Part shown: positions 1 to 60,630 of the stretch, piece by piece
Position numbering within the stretch: position 1 is the stretch's first letter
How the letters are laid out: every line of letters starts with the position of its first letter
Origin: a virus
Length of the DNA stretch: 64,000 nt
IMG/VR virus record: IMGVR_UViG_3300028027_000002
Span: 32,001-96,000 of that record
Direction: 5' to 3' (one strand)
Translations under genes and position numbers: made by a program
Notes under the pieces: generated by a model
Database searches by the model: none
What the model was told of the DNA's origin: nothing
The model's input: only the letters and a program-made list of their open reading frames with translations

Positions 1-3000
1 AAAATACAAGTTTTAGAATTGTTATTAAAATTAATTACATAGACCAGGGAAGCAATGCAGATGACTACGAATTTTTAATTAATGGTGTCACCGCTGGTCA
101 GTGGTCAGAAGAATTTAACTCGTCTTCGCTTGGAGTCGATGGATATTTTGTTCCAAACAATATAGCAATAGAACCCACTTACGGAATTAACGCCAATGCT
201 TATGGACTACAAGACAAAAAAGGATATTATCTTATGTCAAATAAAAGTCTTATGGCAAAAAATACTGGAATCCCTTTAGTGTATGGTGCTTCGAACCTTA
301 CAAAACTTTTACCAAATTCAAACTCTTATGGAATGGTACATGAGGTTCGTAGAGATCCTGACGCCTACCTATTTGCTGGTACATCTAATCCAATAGTTAC
401 AGTTACCCGTGGATCAACTTATACTTTTAGCATGAAGACTCCTGGATACCCACTTGCGATACAAACAGTATCTGGAGAGTACAACTCTGCTAGTGAATAT
501 AATAATGGAATAAATAATTCTGGAGCAGATGTTGGAGATATTACTTGGGTTGTTCAGGAAGACTCTCCAGACAACCTTTATTATGTTTGCAAAAATAATC
601 CAGAGATGAGCGGAATAATAAATGTTGTAGATCCAGCCCCGAAACCTTCACTGATTATTCCAGGGCAAGGGTTTTTGGGTGCTGACGGACAATACAAACA
701 ATACACTTTAGAGGCTTGGGTAAGAATTAACTCAGACTCACAAACATTGAAAAGAATTATTGGGCCAATAGGATCAGATGATGGAGTTTATGTTGAAGGC
801 CCATTCTTGATTTTAAAAATAGGATCAAACTTTGGTTCCTATTATGTTGGAGAATGGTATCGCCCCATGCTTATGCATATTCGAGTTGGAGAAAATAATT
901 CTTCTTTGCTTATTAATGGAGAAGAAGTAATATCATTAAGGTATTTAACCGAAGAGTTGAACTTGCCGACCACAATGGATTCCAATAGAAAAAATCAAGA
1001 TTGGATTGGTTTTTATGCATACGAAGATGTATCCCCAATAGAAATTGACTGTGTTGCATTGTATACTTATAATGTTCCTTTGGTCTTGGCTAAGAAAAGA
1101 TTTGTTTATGGACAGGGAGTTGAGTTTCCAGAGGGAATTAATCAAGCCTATAGTGGTTCATCTATTTATATAGATTATCCATTTGCAGAGTATGCAAATA
1201 ATTATTCATACCCCAACATAGGAAACTGGTCTCAAGGAATAGTTGATAATTTAAAAACAGATAGTGGGCTTTTATCTACTCCAGATTATAAGTTGCCAGA
1301 CATTGTTCTGTCAGGGTTTTCTGTAGAAAATCTTTCTTCTAGTTTTTATCCACAAGACGAAGATGGTTTATCTTTTTCTTTTGGAGAACTTCAAGGATCA
1401 TATATGTATTTTGACAACTTAAACTTTTTAAAAGAAAAGGTTAAGTCTTTTTATGGGTCTTTTAAATTTACCTCTGTTCCAGAAACAAAGCAGGTATTGT
1501 TCAGGGCTGAGTCAAAAACATCAACAAACTATTTTGAAATATCTTGTACAGGAACATCAATAGTTTATACCTTAAACTATAATCAAATAGAAGAGGTTCT
1601 GCTAACCTTATCTCCTGTAGCGCTTGAAGAAATATTCTCTGTAGGTGTAGATGTAGAAACTATCTCTAAGTATTTTGGAGGAAATGTTGCATCTTTCTTT
1701 GGTAACTTTAGCAGTCTTGGCTTTTATATTGCAGGAAGTTCAAATCCATCAGAAACATTTTCTGGTAAAGCATACAGGGTGGGTTTTTGTACTTCTAGAA
1801 ATCACAGATACATTAAAGATTTTTTTAATGAAAAGGGTATTGTTATAGAAAATGATAGCGTGTTCTTGGAGTATATTCAAACTCCAGACGTAGAGTACAA
1901 CTCTACAGAAGATTACTTTGGTAATAATCCTGCAGAGTGGGATTCAATTGTCGATTCAGGAATGTTAACTGATGTGTCCGCAAATACCCTTCAATCACAC
2001 ACAGCAAGTTATACCCTGTCTCCAATAATTAATTTTGGATCTTACTCCCTAGACATTGATGTCCAAGGATATTGGGAGGACTATGTCCCACTTACTTATT
2101 TTGCTAAGTATATAACCGATAGTAAAAATAAACCGTACTATGACTTAGATTTTATTCAGTTTAACATAAACTATCCAGCACCATCTGTTTTTATAGAAGA
2201 AGAGCAGTTTGGGTCTTGGACATATGAAGAACTATATGATGAATACAGCGTTCCAGTGCAAAGAGACTATGCTTCATTAGACAATCAACTTTTTAACGGA
2301 TATCTAGATTATACAGACCTAAGAGATAGAGCCTTTAGAAACTATAAGTATGACACATCAAACTCTTTAGTAAAATCTTACATTACATTTCAATATATCA
2401 AGAATGGTGCAAACCTTTCGTCAGAAAATTTTATAAATATTCAAAAACCGTCTAATGATTCTTTTGTTATTCCAGGTGAAGACTGGAGAACAACAAAGTA
2501 TGAGGTTGTAGATAACATGGTTATATATACTCCAAAAGATGTCAGCAATCTAGATATTGCAATAGTTACACATCTTGAGTTTAATGTAAAGGGTATACTA
2601 AAGAACAAGGTTGCTCTTAGAACGCTAGAGTATTGCTCTCAAGCATTTAACAATACATCTACAAATCCTGTTGGTACCAGGTTTGGTCATAATCTTTATC
2701 CTTATAAAAAATCTGGATTCTACTACGACTACAAGTCTGAAAATCCTTTTACAATTTATAAAGGAACTTCTCCGTATTTATATTTAACAAGATATAGCGG
2801 TATAGGAATAAAGGGAGTAATAGATCCAAAGGTTAACAGAGGACTATCTGTTTCAATTAATAAAGAAAAATCAGACAACTTTAAAGTTATGGCTATGCAA
2901 ATGGCAGTTAGATATGACAAAGACTCTTTCCCATATGGATCTGTAGAGGTGTTCGAAATTAAGTCAAAAGACAGACATATAAAGTTTTACATGTCAGCAA

Positions 3001-3548
3001 TTCATCCAACTGGTCAAAGAGCAAAAATCTACGCAGTAGATGTAAATACTGGAAGAATAGAAAACAAGGTCAGGTTTTATCTTAATGGCAGTCCAGTTAA
3101 AGACCCAGTTTTAACAGTCAAAGAGTGGGCCTTTTTGGGAATATCTTTTTCAAAAGTTTTAGATTTCAAGAATAGGGTTGGAACTATTAATTTAAATGGT
3201 CCACTCACATTTAACACAATCTCCTACTATGAATCAACCAACCTTCAAGATGTTCAAGAGACAGAGTTTAGAAAGTGGTTTGGTGTAAAGTATATTGCCC
3301 CAGAAAATATAGAGTGGAATTACTGGCTAACAGGCGGTTCTGACTGGGACGGAGTTGCAGTACTATCTAAAACTAATTATTATGGGGTTGATCCTTCAAC
3401 AATTTATAAGAGTTATACTGGAACAAATAAGATTATTATAGATAGTGAGGCCTCTTTGGTCATTAATAATGAAAGATCTCTAACAGACTATGAGTATAGG
3501 CTCTATTCTGGTATAAAGTCGAAGACAATAACCGTTACTGCTATCTAA
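1..3548 (+). CDS. Large virion structural protein (LamG/ConA-like beta domains with inserted cupredoxin-like domain); 5' end lies outside the window
   Basis: Frame is open from position 3 to the ATG at 234, so the gene is truncated by the window. LamG-like segments (YTLEAWVRIN; WAFLGISF); located upstream of the portal. Confidence 0.6.
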   Translation, partial: NTSFRIVIKINYIDQGSNADDYEFLINGVTAGQWSEEFNSSSLGVDGYFVPNNIAIEPTYGINANAYGLQDKKGYYLMSNKSLMAKNTGIPLVYGASNLTKLLPNSNSYGMVHEVRRDPDAYLFAGTSNPIVTVTRGSTYTFSMKTPGYPLAIQTVSGEYNSASEYNNGINNSGADVGDITWVVQEDSPDNLYYVCKNNPEMSGIINVVDPAPKPSLIIPGQGFLGADGQYKQYTLEAWVRINSDSQTLKRIIGPIGSDDGVYVEGPFLILKIGSNFGSYYVGEWYRPMLMHIRVGENNSSLLINGEEVISLRYLTEELNLPTTMDSNRKNQDWIGFYAYEDVSPIEIDCVALYTYNVPLVLAKKRFVYGQGVEFPEGINQAYSGSSIYIDYPFAEYANNYSYPNIGNWSQGIVDNLKTDSGLLSTPDYKLPDIVLSGFSVENLSSSFYPQDEDGLSFSFGELQGSYMYFDNLNFLKEKVKSFYGSFKFTSVPETKQVLFRAESKTSTNYFEISCTGTSIVYTLNYNQIEEVLLTLSPVALEEIFSVGVDVETISKYFGGNVASFFGNFSSLGFYIAGSSNPSETFSGKAYRVGFCTSRNHRYIKDFFNEKGIVIENDSVFLEYIQTPDVEYNSTEDYFGNNPAEWDSIVDSGMLTDVSANTLQSHTASYTLSPIINFGSYSLDIDVQGYWEDYVPLTYFAKYITDSKNKPYYDLDFIQFNINYPAPSVFIEEEQFGSWTYEELYDEYSVPVQRDYASLDNQLFNGYLDYTDLRDRAFRNYKYDTSNSLVKSYITFQYIKNGANLSSENFINIQKPSNDSFVIPGEDWRTTKYEVVDNMVIYTPKDVSNLDIAIVTHLEFNVKGILKNKVALRTLEYCSQAFNNTSTNPVGTRFGHNLYPYKKSGFYYDYKSENPFTIYKGTSPYLYLTRYSGIGIKGVIDPKVNRGLSVSINKEKSDNFKVMAMQMAVRYDKDSFPYGSVEVFEIKSKDRHIKFYMSAIHPTGQRAKIYAVDVNTGRIENKVRFYLNGSPVKDPVLTVKEWAFLGISFSKVLDFKNRVGTINLNGPLTFNTISYYESTNLQDVQETEFRKWFGVKYIAPENIEWNYWLTGGSDWDGVAVLSKTNYYGVDPSTIYKSYTGTNKIIIDSEASLVINNERSLTDYEYRLYSGIKSKTITVTAI

Positions 3549-3566
3549 TATGGTATACTTTAGTAT

Positions 3567-3971
3567 ATGAATATGGAAAATCCACGTAAAAAGAAAAAGG
3601 CATTGCCTAAAATGAAGGGGCAAGTGGGTGAGTCCCGTGCAAAAATTATTGAAAAGCACTACGACTGGGGCCTTTATGTATACAAAAAAGCAAATGGCAA
3701 GTGGTTTACTGATGGAAATGGTTCTGTATTAAACATTGAGTCTATGAAGGGTGATATTCTGCAGATATCAAAACTCAAAGATGCTGCTAAATATTACGGG
3801 GATGAAGGAGATGGCGAGTGCATCTTCGTGCCAGGACTAACAAGAATCTCAGAAGAAGAATACTCTGAGCAGAAACAAAGACTTTCAGAAGGCCTGATTC
3901 CTTCTATGAATGACCTTGGAGCAGTACAAGCAGCCAAGGATACTATTGCAAAATATGGAAGTGATGACTAA
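3567..3971 (+). CDS. Hypothetical protein upstream of portal (leaderless)
   Basis: 134-aa ORF; TGGTATACT at 3551-3559 ends 7 nt before the ATG; TAATG overlap with the portal gene. Confidence 0.75.
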   Translation: MNMENPRKKKKALPKMKGQVGESRAKIIEKHYDWGLYVYKKANGKWFTDGNGSVLNIESMKGDILQISKLKDAAKYYGDEGDGECIFVPGLTRISEEEYSEQKQRLSEGLIPSMNDLGAVQAAKDTIAKYGSDD

Positions 3972-5578
3972 TGAGTGAAGACAAAGAATTTTTTATTAGA
4001 GCAAAGACAGATACCCCACTTCCAGAGGATGATACTTTTACAAAGCAGGATCCATTTAATCAGTCTTGGGATGTAATAAAAGATTTGCAGGGACTTGACA
4101 GTAACTTTAAAAGAAGAACTTCTCGAATCATTAAAGGAGAAGCAACTCAGGCATACATGGACAGTTCAAGAGCAGACAGCGTTGGAATCAATGGAGCAAG
4201 ATCTAAAGAGATAAACTCAGGAACTGTATTTAGAAATGCTTATGGTTTGTTTGATGTTATTACCCCACCATGGAACTTGTATGAACTTGCAAGTTTCTAC
4301 GATACATCATTTGCTAACCATGCTGCAATTGATGCTAAAGTAGAGAACATTGTTGGACTTGGGTATGAGTTTAAAATTTCAAAAAGAACTATGCTTAAGT
4401 TAGAGGCATCTGAACCAAAGACTTCAGAAAATGCAAGAAAAAGAATTGAAAGAGCAAAGATTGAAATGACTGATTGGCTTGAGTCACTAAACGACGAAGA
4501 CTCATTTACAACAACCATGGAAAAGGTCTTTACTGATCTTCAGTCAACTGGTAACGCTTACCTTGAAATTGGCAGAACCACTCGTGGAGATATTGGATAT
4601 GTTGGTCATATCCCATCTACAACAATGCGTGTTCGTAGACTTCGTGATGGTTTTGTTCAGGTTATTGCAAACAAGGTTGTTTATTTCCGTAACTTTGGTG
4701 CAACGAATCCCAACCCGCTTGGAACAGATCCAAGACCAAACGAAATCATTCATTTTAAAGAATACTCACCTCTAAATACTTTTTATGGAGTTCCAGACAT
4801 CATGTCTGCAATTGGATCATTGCACGGAGATCAACTTGCGTCACAGTACAACATTGATTATTTCCAAAACAAAGCAACTCCAAGATATGTTGTAACTCTC
4901 AAGGGTGCAAAGTTATCTGCCGAAGCAGAGGACAAGATGTTTAGATTTTTGCAGACAGGGCTTAAGGGTCAAAATCACAGAACTCTTTATATCCCACTGC
5001 CAGGAGACTCTGATACCAACAAGGTAGAGTTTAAGATGGACCCTGTAGAAAATGGCGTTCAGGAAGCATCATTTAGAGAATATAGAAAGCAGAATAGAGA
5101 CGACATTCTTGTTGCTCACCAAGTTCCTCTTTCTAAGATTGGTGGATCTGACTCTTCAGCAATTGCTGCTGCGCTCTCACAAGACCGCACATTTAAAGAG
5201 CAGGTTGCAAGACCAGCACAGAGAAACCTTGAAAAGATGATCAATAAGATCATAAAAGAAAAAACAGATATTCTTGAGTTTAAGTTTAATGAACTTACAC
5301 TTACAGATGAAATTGCTCAATCACAGATTATCGAAAGACTTGTAAAGACTCAGGTAATGCTTCCAAATGAAGGTCGAGAACTTCTTGGTCTTCCGCAGAT
5401 AGAAGGTGGCAACGAGCCTTTTGATCCAAAGCCAGAACAAGCAGCAAACGATAATGCGGACAGAGCAAGGGATACTGAAAGAACTAACAACCAGTCTGAT
5501 GGACCAGCCACAGTAAGTGGAAGAAATCCAAAAGGTGAAGGTCGTAAAGTTGATGATGTGCCCGAAATGTCCAAATAG
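3971..5578 (+). CDS. Portal protein (HK97/PBSX-like)
   Basis: 535 aa; motifs TGNAYLEI, EIIHFK..FYGVP, ILVAHQVP, PNEGRELLGLP; position before protease and capsid genes. Confidence 0.92.
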   Translation: MSEDKEFFIRAKTDTPLPEDDTFTKQDPFNQSWDVIKDLQGLDSNFKRRTSRIIKGEATQAYMDSSRADSVGINGARSKEINSGTVFRNAYGLFDVITPPWNLYELASFYDTSFANHAAIDAKVENIVGLGYEFKISKRTMLKLEASEPKTSENARKRIERAKIEMTDWLESLNDEDSFTTTMEKVFTDLQSTGNAYLEIGRTTRGDIGYVGHIPSTTMRVRRLRDGFVQVIANKVVYFRNFGATNPNPLGTDPRPNEIIHFKEYSPLNTFYGVPDIMSAIGSLHGDQLASQYNIDYFQNKATPRYVVTLKGAKLSAEAEDKMFRFLQTGLKGQNHRTLYIPLPGDSDTNKVEFKMDPVENGVQEASFREYRKQNRDDILVAHQVPLSKIGGSDSSAIAAALSQDRTFKEQVARPAQRNLEKMINKIIKEKTDILEFKFNELTLTDEIAQSQIIERLVKTQVMLPNEGRELLGLPQIEGGNEPFDPKPEQAANDNADRARDTERTNNQSDGPATVSGRNPKGEGRKVDDVPEMSK

Positions 5579-5616
5579 TGATACTTTAGCAAAAAAGGGT
5601 ATATAATATAATAACC

Positions 5617-6975
5617 ATGATTATCTCTAAAGCCAATTGGAATACAGATGGAGACAACCTCCGCCTATCTATGCCACTTACTAAGGTGGATAAAGAGCGT
5701 CGAATCGTTTCAGGATTTGCATCTCTAGACAATATTGATAAGCAAGATGATATTGTAACAGCAGAAGCATCAATGGATGCATTTGCAAAATTCCGTGGGA
5801 ACATTAGAGAAATGCACCAGCCATTAGCAGTAGGCAAGATGGTAGACTTTAAAGCAGAAAAGTATTTCGATCCAGAATCAAAGAAGTTTTATAACGGAGT
5901 ATTCGTATCCGCATATGTTTCAAAAGGTGCACAAGATACTTGGGAAAAAGTTCTAGACGGAACACTTGCTGGTTTTTCTATTGGCGGAAGAATGAACAAG
6001 TGGGATGATGCTTATGACGAGAAGTCAGATAAGTCAATCCGTGTTATTAAGCAGTATGATTTAGTTGAGTTGAGTCTTGTAGATTCCCCAGCAAATCAAT
6101 TTGCAAACATCGTATCTGTTGAAAAGGTAGATGGCGTAGATGTAATTAAGGCTGATGAAACAGTTTTAGAAAATGTATTTTATGATAAGGAAAATGGAAT
6201 AGTCCTTGCATCTGAAAATGAATCAGAGTTAAGCCCAATAACTGGTGAGCAAATGGAAAACATAGGTTTCGTTGAAAAAACGGATAACGAAAAACTAAAT
6301 ATGATAAAATTCTTAGTCGATAGTGCTAAAGGCATTAATACTTCTAAGATTAACAAGGAGGAAAACCTTATGGCAAAATCAACAAAAAACACAGTTGAAG
6401 AGATCGTTGAGAAATCTGATATTGCAGTTGAAGTAACAGAGGTCGCTCCAGAGGCAGATGCGAAAGCAGATGTAGTAGAGACTCCAGCAGAAGAAGTTTC
6501 AACAGAGAAGGCTGCGAAAGCACCATCTTCTGGCGAAGAAGATGCTGAAGAAGATGCTGCGGAAACTCCAGCAGATGAAGAGGCAGAGGCTAAGAAGCCA
6601 ATGGCTCCTAAGTCAGATGAAGTAGTTGTAGAAGCACCAGTTGCAGAAACAGTTACAGAAACAACTGATGGTCTTGAAAAAGCCTTTAGCGATCTAGTAG
6701 AAGTTGTCAAATCATTACAAACAGAGGTAGAACTTTTGAAGTCTACCAAGGTTGATATTGAAGTGGCACAAACATCATTTGAAGCAGTTGCAAAAGATAT
6801 TGCATCAGCAACAAGTGTATTTAATGAATTTGGTAAGCGTGTGGAACTTGTAGAGCAAGACACTGCTTTCCGAAAGTCTGGCGATCTCGGCGAGATAGTA
6901 CAGAATCAGCCTGAAACGGTTGAAAAATCCCTATGGGGCGGTAGTTTCCTCAAAACAGCCGACTTATTCAATTAA
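5617..6975 (+). CDS. Prohead maturation protease fused to scaffold domain
   Basis: HK97-type protease motifs (VSGFAS..D.Q.D, REMH, GFSIGG, LVELSLVDSPAN) followed by an acidic Ala/Glu-rich coiled-coil tail. Confidence 0.88.
   Translation: MIISKANWNTDGDNLRLSMPLTKVDKERRIVSGFASLDNIDKQDDIVTAEASMDAFAKFRGNIREMHQPLAVGKMVDFKAEKYFDPESKKFYNGVFVSAYVSKGAQDTWEKVLDGTLAGFSIGGRMNKWDDAYDEKSDKSIRVIKQYDLVELSLVDSPANQFANIVSVEKVDGVDVIKADETVLENVFYDKENGIVLASENESELSPITGEQMENIGFVEKTDNEKLNMIKFLVDSAKGINTSKINKEENLMAKSTKNTVEEIVEKSDIAVEVTEVAPEADAKADVVETPAEEVSTEKAAKAPSSGEEDAEEDAAETPADEEAEAKKPMAPKSDEVVVEAPVAETVTETTDGLEKAFSDLVEVVKSLQTEVELLKSTKVDIEVAQTSFEAVAKDIASATSVFNEFGKRVELVEQDTAFRKSGDLGEIVQNQPETVEKSLWGGSFLKTADLFN
6370..6975 (+). 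CDS. Nested in-frame scaffold protein (internal start)
   Basis: AAGGAGG (6355-6361) precedes an in-frame ATG at 6370 at the protease/acidic-tail boundary; analogous to lambda C/Nu3. Confidence 0.6.
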   Translation: MAKSTKNTVEEIVEKSDIAVEVTEVAPEADAKADVVETPAEEVSTEKAAKAPSSGEEDAEEDAAETPADEEAEAKKPMAPKSDEVVVEAPVAETVTETTDGLEKAFSDLVEVVKSLQTEVELLKSTKVDIEVAQTSFEAVAKDIASATSVFNEFGKRVELVEQDTAFRKSGDLGEIVQNQPETVEKSLWGGSFLKTADLFN

Positions 6976-51815: not shown

Positions 51816-51842
51816 AGTCCTAGGCATGACTAAAACTGCCTA
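51816..51842 (+). ncRNA. Small H-type pseudoknot motif, copy 1
   Basis: AGTC-C-TAGGCA-T-GACT-AAAAC-TGCCTA; covaries with the copy at 60024-60055. Confidence 0.6.
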
Positions 51843-57734: not shown

Positions 57735-58019
57735 ATGCCAAAGCACGAATGGAAAGATGATGCTTTGTGTTTAGATTACGACACAAATATATTCTTTGAA
57801 AAGTATGAAGATGATGAACTTCTAAGACCTGCAGTAGACAAACTTTGTTCTATGTGTCCAGTGTCTAAGATGTGTTTTGCTGTTGGTGTTTCACAAAAAG
57901 AGTGGGGTATCTGGGGTGGAGTTTATCTCGAAGGTGGACAAATATCTAAAGAGTTTTCAAAACATAAGTCTAAAACAGACTGGGCAAATACTTGGCAAAG
58001 ACTAACAACGGAGCAATAA
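57735..58019 (+). CDS. whiB: WhiB-family transcription factor
   Basis: W...ALC...FF...LC..CPV...C...GIWGG. Confidence 0.92.
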   Translation: MPKHEWKDDALCLDYDTNIFFEKYEDDELLRPAVDKLCSMCPVSKMCFAVGVSQKEWGIWGGVYLEGGQISKEFSKHKSKTDWANTWQRLTTEQ

Positions 58020-58828: not shown

Positions 58829-59619
58829 ATTTTTTTTGGTTTGAAAGATCAAATTCTTATGATATAAAAGAAATATCTTTAGAGTTAGAAAAATCTGGTT
58901 TTTATGGGGTTCTTTTGGTGTACTCGTTTTATAGTGATGATCAATTTGTAAAAATAGCAAATGCAATAGATGTAAATCAAAAAATAAAATATATGGTTGC
59001 CATAAGACCTCATGTTATATCTCCACAATATTTGTCTATGATAAACAATTCATTTCAAAAAATATCAAAAGACAGAATCATAATTAATTTTATAACTGGT
59101 TGGATATCGGAATATGACAAACAGGTGGGTGGAATTCAAGGTGAAGTAAATGACCTTTCTTCAAACCTAGAAAGATCTGAGAACTTGGTAGAATATTTAA
59201 AGGTTTTAAAAAATACCGCTGGAGAAACACCAAACTTTTATGTGTCTGTTACTAATCCTATTTTACTGGAAAAGGTTTCTGGCGATAAAGTTATTATTCC
59301 ATACCAGTCATACAAGCAAAACAATTTTAGCACTAATGATTCAAGCAAAATAATGATCTATATTTCTCCAGTAATAAGAAAAACAAGAGAAGAACTTTTA
59401 CCACTGATAGAAAAAAATACAAGAAGTGATGTTCAGCACTTTACCTTTGATGAGTTTGAAGCATTATTAAACGAATTAAAAAATAAAAATATAAACAATA
59501 TTTTAATGGACGAAGCAGAACCCAACGAATATATAGAAAAAAAGCACACGCTAAGTTTTGTTAGTTATTTTACTAACAAAGAAACAAATATCCTAGGAGG
59601 AAAAAATGACACACCATAA
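58825..59619 (+). CDS. Luciferase-like (SsuD-related) monooxygenase homolog, copy 2
   Basis: LEKSGFYGVL, IKYMVAIRP..ISPQY, RIIINFITG; paralog of 53330..54172. Confidence 0.65.
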   Translation: MNFFWFERSNSYDIKEISLELEKSGFYGVLLVYSFYSDDQFVKIANAIDVNQKIKYMVAIRPHVISPQYLSMINNSFQKISKDRIIINFITGWISEYDKQVGGIQGEVNDLSSNLERSENLVEYLKVLKNTAGETPNFYVSVTNPILLEKVSGDKVIIPYQSYKQNNFSTNDSSKIMIYISPVIRKTREELLPLIEKNTRSDVQHFTFDEFEALLNELKNKNINNILMDEAEPNEYIEKKHTLSFVSYFTNKETNILGGKNDTP

Positions 59620-59923
59620 CGAAACAAACTCACAGATCAAGGCAGCACTTGCATCATACGGACGCTCAGTCCTTGGTGCAGCAACAGCGATGTATGCATC
59701 TGGAGTTACAGATCCGCAGACACTAGCATACTCACTACTTGGAGCACTTGTGCCCGTAGTATTAAGAGCAGCCAACCCTAATGACAAGGCATTTGGAAAG
59801 ATGCCTTCAGTAGATGAGGTAGACGCAGCAGTTAAGTCTGCAAAGGTAGTAAAGAAGACCGCTAAGAAGGCTCCTGCAAAGAAGTCATCAGGCGGAGGCA
59901 AGACAACCAATCAAGTAAAATAA
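59606..59923 (+). CDS. Putative holin
   Basis: Two hydrophobic helices, NPND.AFG motif, basic C-tail; SD AGGAGG. Confidence 0.55.
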   Translation: MTHHNETNSQIKAALASYGRSVLGAATAMYASGVTDPQTLAYSLLGALVPVVLRAANPNDKAFGKMPSVDEVDAAVKSAKVVKKTAKKAPAKKSSGGGKTTNQVK

Positions 59924-59941
59924 TATAGTATAATTTATACT

Positions 59942-60057
59942 ATTCCGATCTAAGACTTTAAAAGGTTTTACAACGGATGCTCTTATGAGAAGAGAGTTAG
60001 CAGGAGTCGAACCTTCGTGGCTAATAGACCTGAGCAGTCGTCTATAAACTGCTCATT
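59942..60057 (+). ncRNA. Candidate structured ncRNA (three hairpins + 3' pseudoknot, copy 2)
   Basis: TATAAT 59929-59934; stems TCCG/CGGA, CTCTT/AAGAG, TTAGC/GCTAA; pseudoknot 60024-60055. Confidence 0.55.
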
Positions 60058-60076
60058 TCTTATGCTATAATATTAA

Positions 60077-60131
60077 TACCTGCCCAAATGGGGGGTAAAT
60101 TAACTTATTCGCTTGAAAGGGGAATAACATG
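60077..60131 (+). promoter_or_regulatory. ROSE-like RNA thermometer 5' UTR of hsp20
   Basis: Promoter TGCTATAAT 60063-60071; two hairpins, the second TTATTCGCTT/AAGGGGAATAA occluding the SD with a UCGCU motif. Confidence 0.55.
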
Positions 60132-60533
60132 GTAAAAACAGCACTGGATCTTTTTAATGATCCATTTTTCAATACCTTCTCAAATTTTCAGAAGGTAACA
60201 ACAACAACAAACTATCCACCTTATAACCAAATCAAACTAAATGATACAGAGTATATTCTTTCATTTGCCTTGGCTGGGTTCTCTAAGGATGATGTCTCAG
60301 TGTCGCTAGACAATCGCAAACTTACAATCAAGGGCGAGAAGCAGGATGCTGAGTTACCAGAGGGTGCGGAGTATCTACATAAGGGCATTGCTGCTCGTAA
60401 GTTTACTGATATCTTTACCCTTCCTGAGTTTGTTGAGGTAGTTGGGGCTGAGTTTAAGGATGGTATCTTAGATATCAGACTTGAAAAGCAGATCCCAGAA
60501 GACAAACTGCCAAAAACAATCGCAATTAAGTAG
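60129..60533 (+). CDS. Small heat shock protein (Hsp20/IbpA-like)
   Basis: YPPYN, ALAGFSK, YLHKGIAARKF, DGIL. Confidence 0.93.
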   Translation: MVKTALDLFNDPFFNTFSNFQKVTTTTNYPPYNQIKLNDTEYILSFALAGFSKDDVSVSLDNRKLTIKGEKQDAELPEGAEYLHKGIAARKFTDIFTLPEFVEVVGAEFKDGILDIRLEKQIPEDKLPKTIAIK

Positions 60534-60545
60534 TACAATATAAAT

Positions 60546-60630
60546 GTCCCCACACAGGACCTTAGTGATGGATTAGTTACCCATTGGATAGAGACCGTGG
60601 CGCAAGTCAGGTGAATTGCCTGTGTGGGGC
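60546..60630 (+). ncRNA. Candidate ~85-nt structured small RNA
   Basis: TACAAT 60534-60539 upstream; 11-bp closing stem CCCCACACAGG/CCTGTGTGGGG enclosing a multi-branch interior. Confidence 0.55.

Follow-up and report, generated by a model that had tools for sequence, protein, structure and literature searches.

MicL and DapZ are enterobacterial small RNAs (sRNAs) that lie at the 3' end of an mRNA, are transcribed from their own internal promoter, work with Hfq and a conserved seed, and finish at a standard terminator. Prophage DicF and VpdS of vibriophage VP882 are phage base-pairing sRNAs with conserved single-stranded seeds. The stable RNAs of phage T4 (species 1 and 2, RNAs C and D) are cut from a tRNA precursor transcript and their role is unexplained, and YrlA, a Y-RNA-like RNA of bacteria and phages, is a modular, protein-binding RNA recognized by its shape. 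Of the phage small RNAs known so far, few rest on comparative structure, and the uncultured phages that abound among freshwater actinobacteria have contributed almost none.

Here we analyze a structured RNA encoded beside the small heat-shock gene hsp20 of a phage. Comparison of related contigs indicates that it is a real phage RNA family outside Rfam, of a kind (phage small RNAs) that is already known; our literature searches returned no description of it. Like MicL and DapZ, it is ~100 nt long, its promoter overlaps the last bases of the upstream ORF or lies right next to them, and its 3' end would be common with the upstream mRNA. Unlike them, it has no visible seed, its 3' end is a pseudoknot, and its likely host phylum, the actinobacteria, is not known to have Hfq. 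It resembles the T4 stable RNAs in being phage-encoded, in size class (~120–140 nt), in its high degree of structure, and in its location in an accessory region with tRNA genes, but it has its own promoter and we found no sequence or Rfam relation to them. With YrlA it shares a length of ~100 nt, paired termini, and a conserved chassis with variable modules; however, there is no Rfam match, no Ro/Rsr gene nearby, and no detected tRNA-like module. Possession of a phage gene with its own promoter for a small RNA is common to DicF and VpdS, whose seeds have no visible counterpart here. The evidence for the family is unusually clean, combining a kept promoter, many compensatory changes, two paralogous types, and a persistent link to the phage small heat-shock gene. 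A widespread gene-end pseudoknot thereby gains a concrete use, capping a non-coding RNA at its 3' end, and the two covariance models that we built can be used for annotating the RNA and for searching lake metatranscriptomes.

Genome setting and likely host

The window, a 64,000-nt stretch of DNA, corresponds to bases 32001–96000 of a 111,870-bp virus record (IMG/VR IMGVR_UViG_3300028027_000002) with direct terminal repeats and a G+C content of 38%. The window encodes portal, protease, capsid, family-A-like DNA polymerase, and DnaB helicase genes, and five tRNAs were found in the window with ARAGORN and with the Rfam tRNA model at its gathering score. A gene for a WhiB-family transcription factor lies at 57735–58019 (Pfam PF02467, E = 1.3e-10). 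Because WhiB proteins are not known outside actinobacteria and their phages, the host is likely an actinobacterium, and the phage likely part of a freshwater actinobacterial phage population. A search of the isolated phage genomes in INPHARED gave no DNA-level match to the RNA/hsp20 region, and only distant hsp20 proteins matched it.

Upstream of the RNA lies a gene for a 105-aa protein (59606–59923), the stop codon of which is 5 nt ahead of the RNA's -10 box; downstream lies the hsp20 coding sequence (60129–60533, plus strand; Pfam HSP20). The original prediction placed the RNA between a holin gene and hsp20. This flanking order is true of the window, but most relatives place the RNA just after hsp20, and the holin assignment found no Pfam or PHROG match. 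The 105-aa protein does have hydrophobic stretches and a Lys/Ala-rich tail, a membrane-like composition that makes the holin label plausible.

A conserved promoter relocates together with the RNA

The predicted -10 box of the RNA gene reads TATAAT at 59929–59934 on the plus strand and is followed by 7 bases and the conserved RNA start at 59942; in most relatives, TAG precedes the box. We found a -10-like hexamer 5–8 nt (mostly 7) before the first conserved RNA base in 136 of 136 distinct contexts. The spacer and the DNA ahead of the box are not the same from one context to the next, but the box is kept behind hsp20, behind the 105-aa gene, and behind other upstream genes alike. Most relatives have the order 105-aa gene, hsp20, RNA, with the hsp20 stop codon within the TAGTATAAT box; the last two are swapped in the window and some other contigs, where the RNA lies between the 105-aa gene and hsp20. 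Promoter and RNA thus relocate together relative to hsp20, and from these differing gene orders we conclude that they form a cassette.

On the 3' side of the pseudoknot, the DNA is variable among relatives and is usually the promoter of the next gene. The genes that follow are of several kinds (hsp20, HNH, 2OG oxygenase, and others), all with a promoter of their own within ~10 nt. For hsp20 in the window, this is a separate extended -10 promoter, TGCTATAAT, read at 60063–60071 on the plus strand, and the same promoter-plus-leader block also precedes hsp20 in relatives that carry the RNA elsewhere. Both promoters of the original prediction, one ahead of the RNA and one of hsp20's own after it, are therefore present. 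Since the promoter sits where the upstream ORF ends, and no terminator comes between that ORF and the RNA, the predicted layout is that of a 3'-end-embedded sRNA with its own promoter.

Compensatory changes maintain the predicted fold

The putative transcript, which we call type A, covers 114 nt (59942–60055, plus strand, both ends inferred) and scores 135.5 bits with covariance model R1; a scan of the 111,870-bp genome with R1 returned this one full copy only. At the 5' end, a clamp, P1 (59944–59947 with 59974–59977), encloses a variable hairpin, P1b (59951–59958 with 59963–59970). It is followed by hairpin P2 (59980–59984 with 59990–59994) and by P3, made up of an outer stem (59996–60001 with 60020–60025) and an inner stem (60003–60006 with 60013–60016). 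The RNA closes with a 3' H-type pseudoknot (60026–60054), in which S1 pairs 60026–60029 with 60040–60043 and S2 pairs 60032–60038 with 60048–60054. A U-rich tail occupies 60055–60063; 6 of its 9 bases are U in the window, 4–6 of 9 are T in most contexts, and some relatives are U-poor. The stems and terminal pseudoknot named in the original prediction can all be located in the sequence. The minimum free energy (MFE) fold recovers the P1 clamp with apical P1b, P2, P3, and the final hairpin, and the minus strand folds worse than the plus strand. However, the MFE of -33 kcal/mol is modest when set against chance (z = -1.96, with 10 of 200 shuffles equally good), and the case for the fold therefore rests on comparison.

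Homologs were gathered in two ways. With the 105-aa protein as query, a search of IMG/VR yielded 80 related contigs, of which 29 hold the RNA at 81–95% identity, and a scan for the 3' part of the RNA gave at least 118 contigs. Together, the two collections supplied at least 76 distinct type A sequences, which were aligned with MAFFT (alignment A1, 76 sequences). In A1, 95.8% of pair cells are paired, compared with 38–48% for slid partners, and 10 pairs have changed on both sides, a number reached by none of 500 shuffles. A model-based alignment of the 46 most diverse homologs (A3) gave 96.6% paired cells against 32–49% for slid partners, with double compensatory changes in 14 of 35 pairs, again reached in 0 of 500 shuffles. 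Structural conservation, which had been proposed as a check on the RNA, was found among these homologs.

The covarying helices are P1b, with 6 of 8 pairs changed on both sides, P2, with 3 of 5 (for example, C-G to U-A or G-C), and both P3 stems, in which three pairs of the outer stem (99.6% paired) and two of the inner stem have changed on both sides; one G-U pair in P3 is invariant. P1, essentially invariant in sequence, and the pseudoknot show scarcely any variation, and the one variable base of the pseudoknot is the linker at 60039. This invariance of the pseudoknot is partly due to the design of the search, and it is also seen in the BLAST-collected set, where no pseudoknot was required. 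Conserved bases concentrate at helix junctions, while the P1b, P2, and P3 loops all vary. Together, these comparisons indicate that compensating mutations maintain the fold across more than 200 related phage contigs.

Strand, coding potential, and comparison with known RNA families

Pairing reaches 96.6% when the alignment is read on the plus strand and 84.9% on the minus strand, a difference due to 187 G-U cells that point to the plus strand. The 20-codon ORF that had been noticed inside the RNA exists in the window (59985–60047, plus strand), and its conservation would have pointed to a peptide. Its ATG, however, is found in 44 of 76 variants and absent from 32, 13 of the 44 are cut to 7 codons, and type B RNAs (described below) have no such ORF. 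We therefore rejected a small-protein or peptide gene. The minus strand of the window's P3 tip resembles a tRNA T-loop box, which suggested a decayed minus-strand tRNA gene. Here, too, the evidence is unfavorable: ARAGORN found no tRNA or tmRNA at the RNA, the Rfam tRNA model gave none there even at E up to 10, the lower minus-strand pairing is as given above, and the T-box-like word is missing from most relatives. That either the peptide or such a tRNA remnant is the conserved feature is extremely unlikely.

In Rfam 15, a search of the window at gathering score returned nothing beyond the five tRNAs. At E up to 10, only chance snoRNA-like matches well under their thresholds overlap the RNA, and likewise for type B, so that the Rfam search proposed with the original prediction yielded no family. 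A ligand-sensing or self-cleaving RNA, with the 3' hairpin or pseudoknot as expression platform, would be consistent with conserved bases at junctions beside covarying stems, and a pseudoknot with an A-rich third loop is also the architecture of preQ1-I aptamers. We nevertheless consider a riboswitch or ribozyme very improbable: no Rfam riboswitch or ribozyme matched even at E up to 10, the fold contains no multi-helix junction, the downstream genes are inconstant and each have their own promoter, and the same pseudoknot follows ordinary stop codons.

Two readings made by eye, a T-loop at the P3 tip and a C/D-like kink-turn in type B, were rejected because spacings misfit or loops are unconserved. 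A type III antitoxin RNA (ToxI-like) was also rejected, as the RNA is a single unrepeated copy whose neighbors are hsp20, an HNH gene, and the gene for the 105-aa membrane-like protein.

The 3' pseudoknot is a gene-end module

The last 29 nt of the RNA form two interleaved stems with a 2-nt pyrimidine first loop and an A-rich third loop, and, at the predicted end of a transcription unit, they fit the gene-end H-type pseudoknot class. A motif scan found 3–4 copies of this pseudoknot in the genome. One occupies 51816–51842 of the window, behind a stop codon and just before tRNA-Asn; another, on the minus strand, follows a stop codon at genome position 106610. Both copies keep S1 paired through matching changes in its two arms, and copies in other records do so too. 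Near-identical 26-nt pseudoknots directly follow stop codons in three MAG contigs labelled Sphingobacteriaceae, Gammaproteobacteria, and Maricaulis (L203, L204, and L205). Because copies close ordinary genes both here and in unrelated records, we conclude that the pseudoknot is a general 3'-end module that caps the RNA. The class motif accounts for this 3' cap only; the remaining parts (promoter, clamp, and three hairpins) belong to the RNA family alone. When examined as a terminator, the 3' end offers a 7-bp stem, a 9-nt loop, and a tail with 6 of 9 bases U, and a terminator consensus scan makes no call.

These gene ends bear on the possibility that the RNA is a cis element, either an elaborate 3' UTR that stabilizes or terminates the mRNA of the gene before it (hsp20 in most cases), or a protective 5' leader of whichever gene follows. 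In its favor, transcripts from upstream meet no terminator before the RNA and must read through it; moreover, genes of the related phages L313 and L315 end, without a promoter, in hairpins plus the same pseudoknot. On the other hand, a consensus -10 box stands at a fixed distance in every context, promoter and body shift together between gene ends, the downstream genes vary and have promoters of their own close by, and plain gene ends make do with the pseudoknot alone. A purely cis-acting role is thus quite unlikely.

A possible promoter-less counterpart of the RNA is the end of a protein gene in L313 (G005:C1:24400-24850, minus strand), where the same pseudoknot comes after two long hairpins. 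The pseudoknot is conserved in sequence, beyond shape, across unrelated records that include GC-rich ones. It is also found in the chromosome of Candidatus Tepidiaquacella proteinivora (Ignavibacteriota; L206), which carries a CRISPR array with a 30-nt repeat at 1770–5960. Of the 97 spacers read, four contain the gene-end pseudoknot sequence, always in one orientation, which suggests that this host repeatedly targets the conserved phage pseudoknot motif.

A second, paralogous type occupies the same place

Many relatives have a different RNA, type B, in this position, with the same promoter ahead of it. The two types have promoter, clamp, and pseudoknot in common and differ in body. The interior of type B is almost invariant and contains one covarying hairpin (alignment A2, 26 distinct sequences). 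In one contig, L309, hsp20 stands between the two, with type B ahead of it and type A behind. We therefore rejected strict allelism: the types are paralogs, not alleles only. A loose clamp-to-pseudoknot pattern, used in looking for a third type, returned type B and five chance matches only. Weak model matches of 18–24 bits in other contigs proved to be plain gene-end pseudoknots and not further types. A likeness to the 23S sarcin-ricin loop sequence was dismissed as chance, since one type B subgroup alone shows it and P1 pairs the bases concerned.

On a tree of the 105-aa gene (77 rows), the RNA type switches at least 11 times; with shuffled labels the mean is 21 and the minimum 16. From these switches we conclude that the region recombines often. 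The window and L009 provide a further comparison, as their RNAs are 92.6% identical and their Hsp20 proteins only 49%. The divergent hsp20 alleles (60129–60533 in the window and 3422–3838 in L009) stand beside neighbor genes that are 88–96% identical between the two phages. The hsp20 region is also a hot spot of recombination, where HNH and 2OG-oxygenase genes and small ORFs have been inserted.

The RNA is linked to hsp20

In contexts collected with RNA-only patterns, the RNA directly adjoins hsp20, on either side, in 102 of 116 cases (61 of 71 for type A and 41 of 45 for type B), and in most of the non-adjacent contexts one or two small ORFs lie between them. A complete relative found via its portal gene has the same gene arrangement as the window. 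Some contigs have hsp20 without the RNA. In a 90%-complete relative, L398 (G007:C1:29802-33068), the 105-aa gene is present and hsp20, RNA, and HNH gene are all missing at the locus. L398 carries instead a 179-aa ORF, which from its sequence may encode a Dps/ferritin-like protein. The linkage is suggestive of a shared function of RNA and Hsp20, but inherited gene order in one close population could also explain it, as the phages compared are close kin with portal proteins 92–100% identical.

The RNA probably acts through its shape

The prediction of an independent phage small RNA gene is supported by the kept promoter, the mobile cassette, the covarying helices, and the G-U pairs of the plus strand. 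A metagenome scan for transcript-like short contigs gave 2 matches, which say nothing about a transcript. We think it probable that the locus is a stand-alone gene for a stable, structured sRNA, type A of a two-type family, that acts in trans by its shape. Transcription would start at ~59941–59942, driven by the host-type -10 promoter ~7 nt upstream, and end just after 60054. Clamp and pseudoknot would lock both termini in helices, giving a long-lived RNA shielded from end-dependent RNases. The folded RNA would then bind or titrate a protein, possibly in the pathway of the phage Hsp20. With no terminator between the upstream ORF and the RNA, the upstream mRNA would also end in this sequence.

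A base-pairing regulatory sRNA, with host or phage mRNAs as targets of its loops or junctions and independent of Hfq as in other actinobacteria, is the alternative to recognition by shape. The gene layout (own promoter, ~100 nt, structured 3' end) is that of known phage and bacterial sRNAs, and types A and B could have different targets. However, the type A homologs contain no invariant unpaired stretch of 7 nt or more outside the pseudoknot that could serve as a conserved single-stranded seed, and the P1b, P2, and P3 loops vary. Within the phage genome, the longest antisense complementarity is 11–12 nt, inside the range of 10–14 nt given by shuffled sequences. We therefore regard base pairing as unlikely. 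As bases are conserved at junctions, loops are variable, and phage complementarity does not exceed chance, recognition by shape is more likely than pairing through a linear antisense seed.

If the RNA does act by shape, a more speculative extension can be formulated, one that we put forward with little confidence. A fixed chassis of promoter, clamp, and pseudoknot cap could serve as a modular platform for swappable A and B bodies, each capturing one host protein, such as a factor of RNA decay or of anti-phage defense. Such RNAs would join the phage Hsp20 in an accessory module for host takeover, exchanged by free recombination between phages that circulate together.

A neighboring structured RNA

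A second putative promoter-driven structured RNA lies at 60534–60630 of the window, just before a small HNH gene. It has a TACAAT box and a closing stem of ~12 bp around two hairpins, and it too is without an Rfam match. Look-alikes of this second RNA are present in 188 of ~300 loci, and every HNH copy that we detected has one at a fixed distance upstream.
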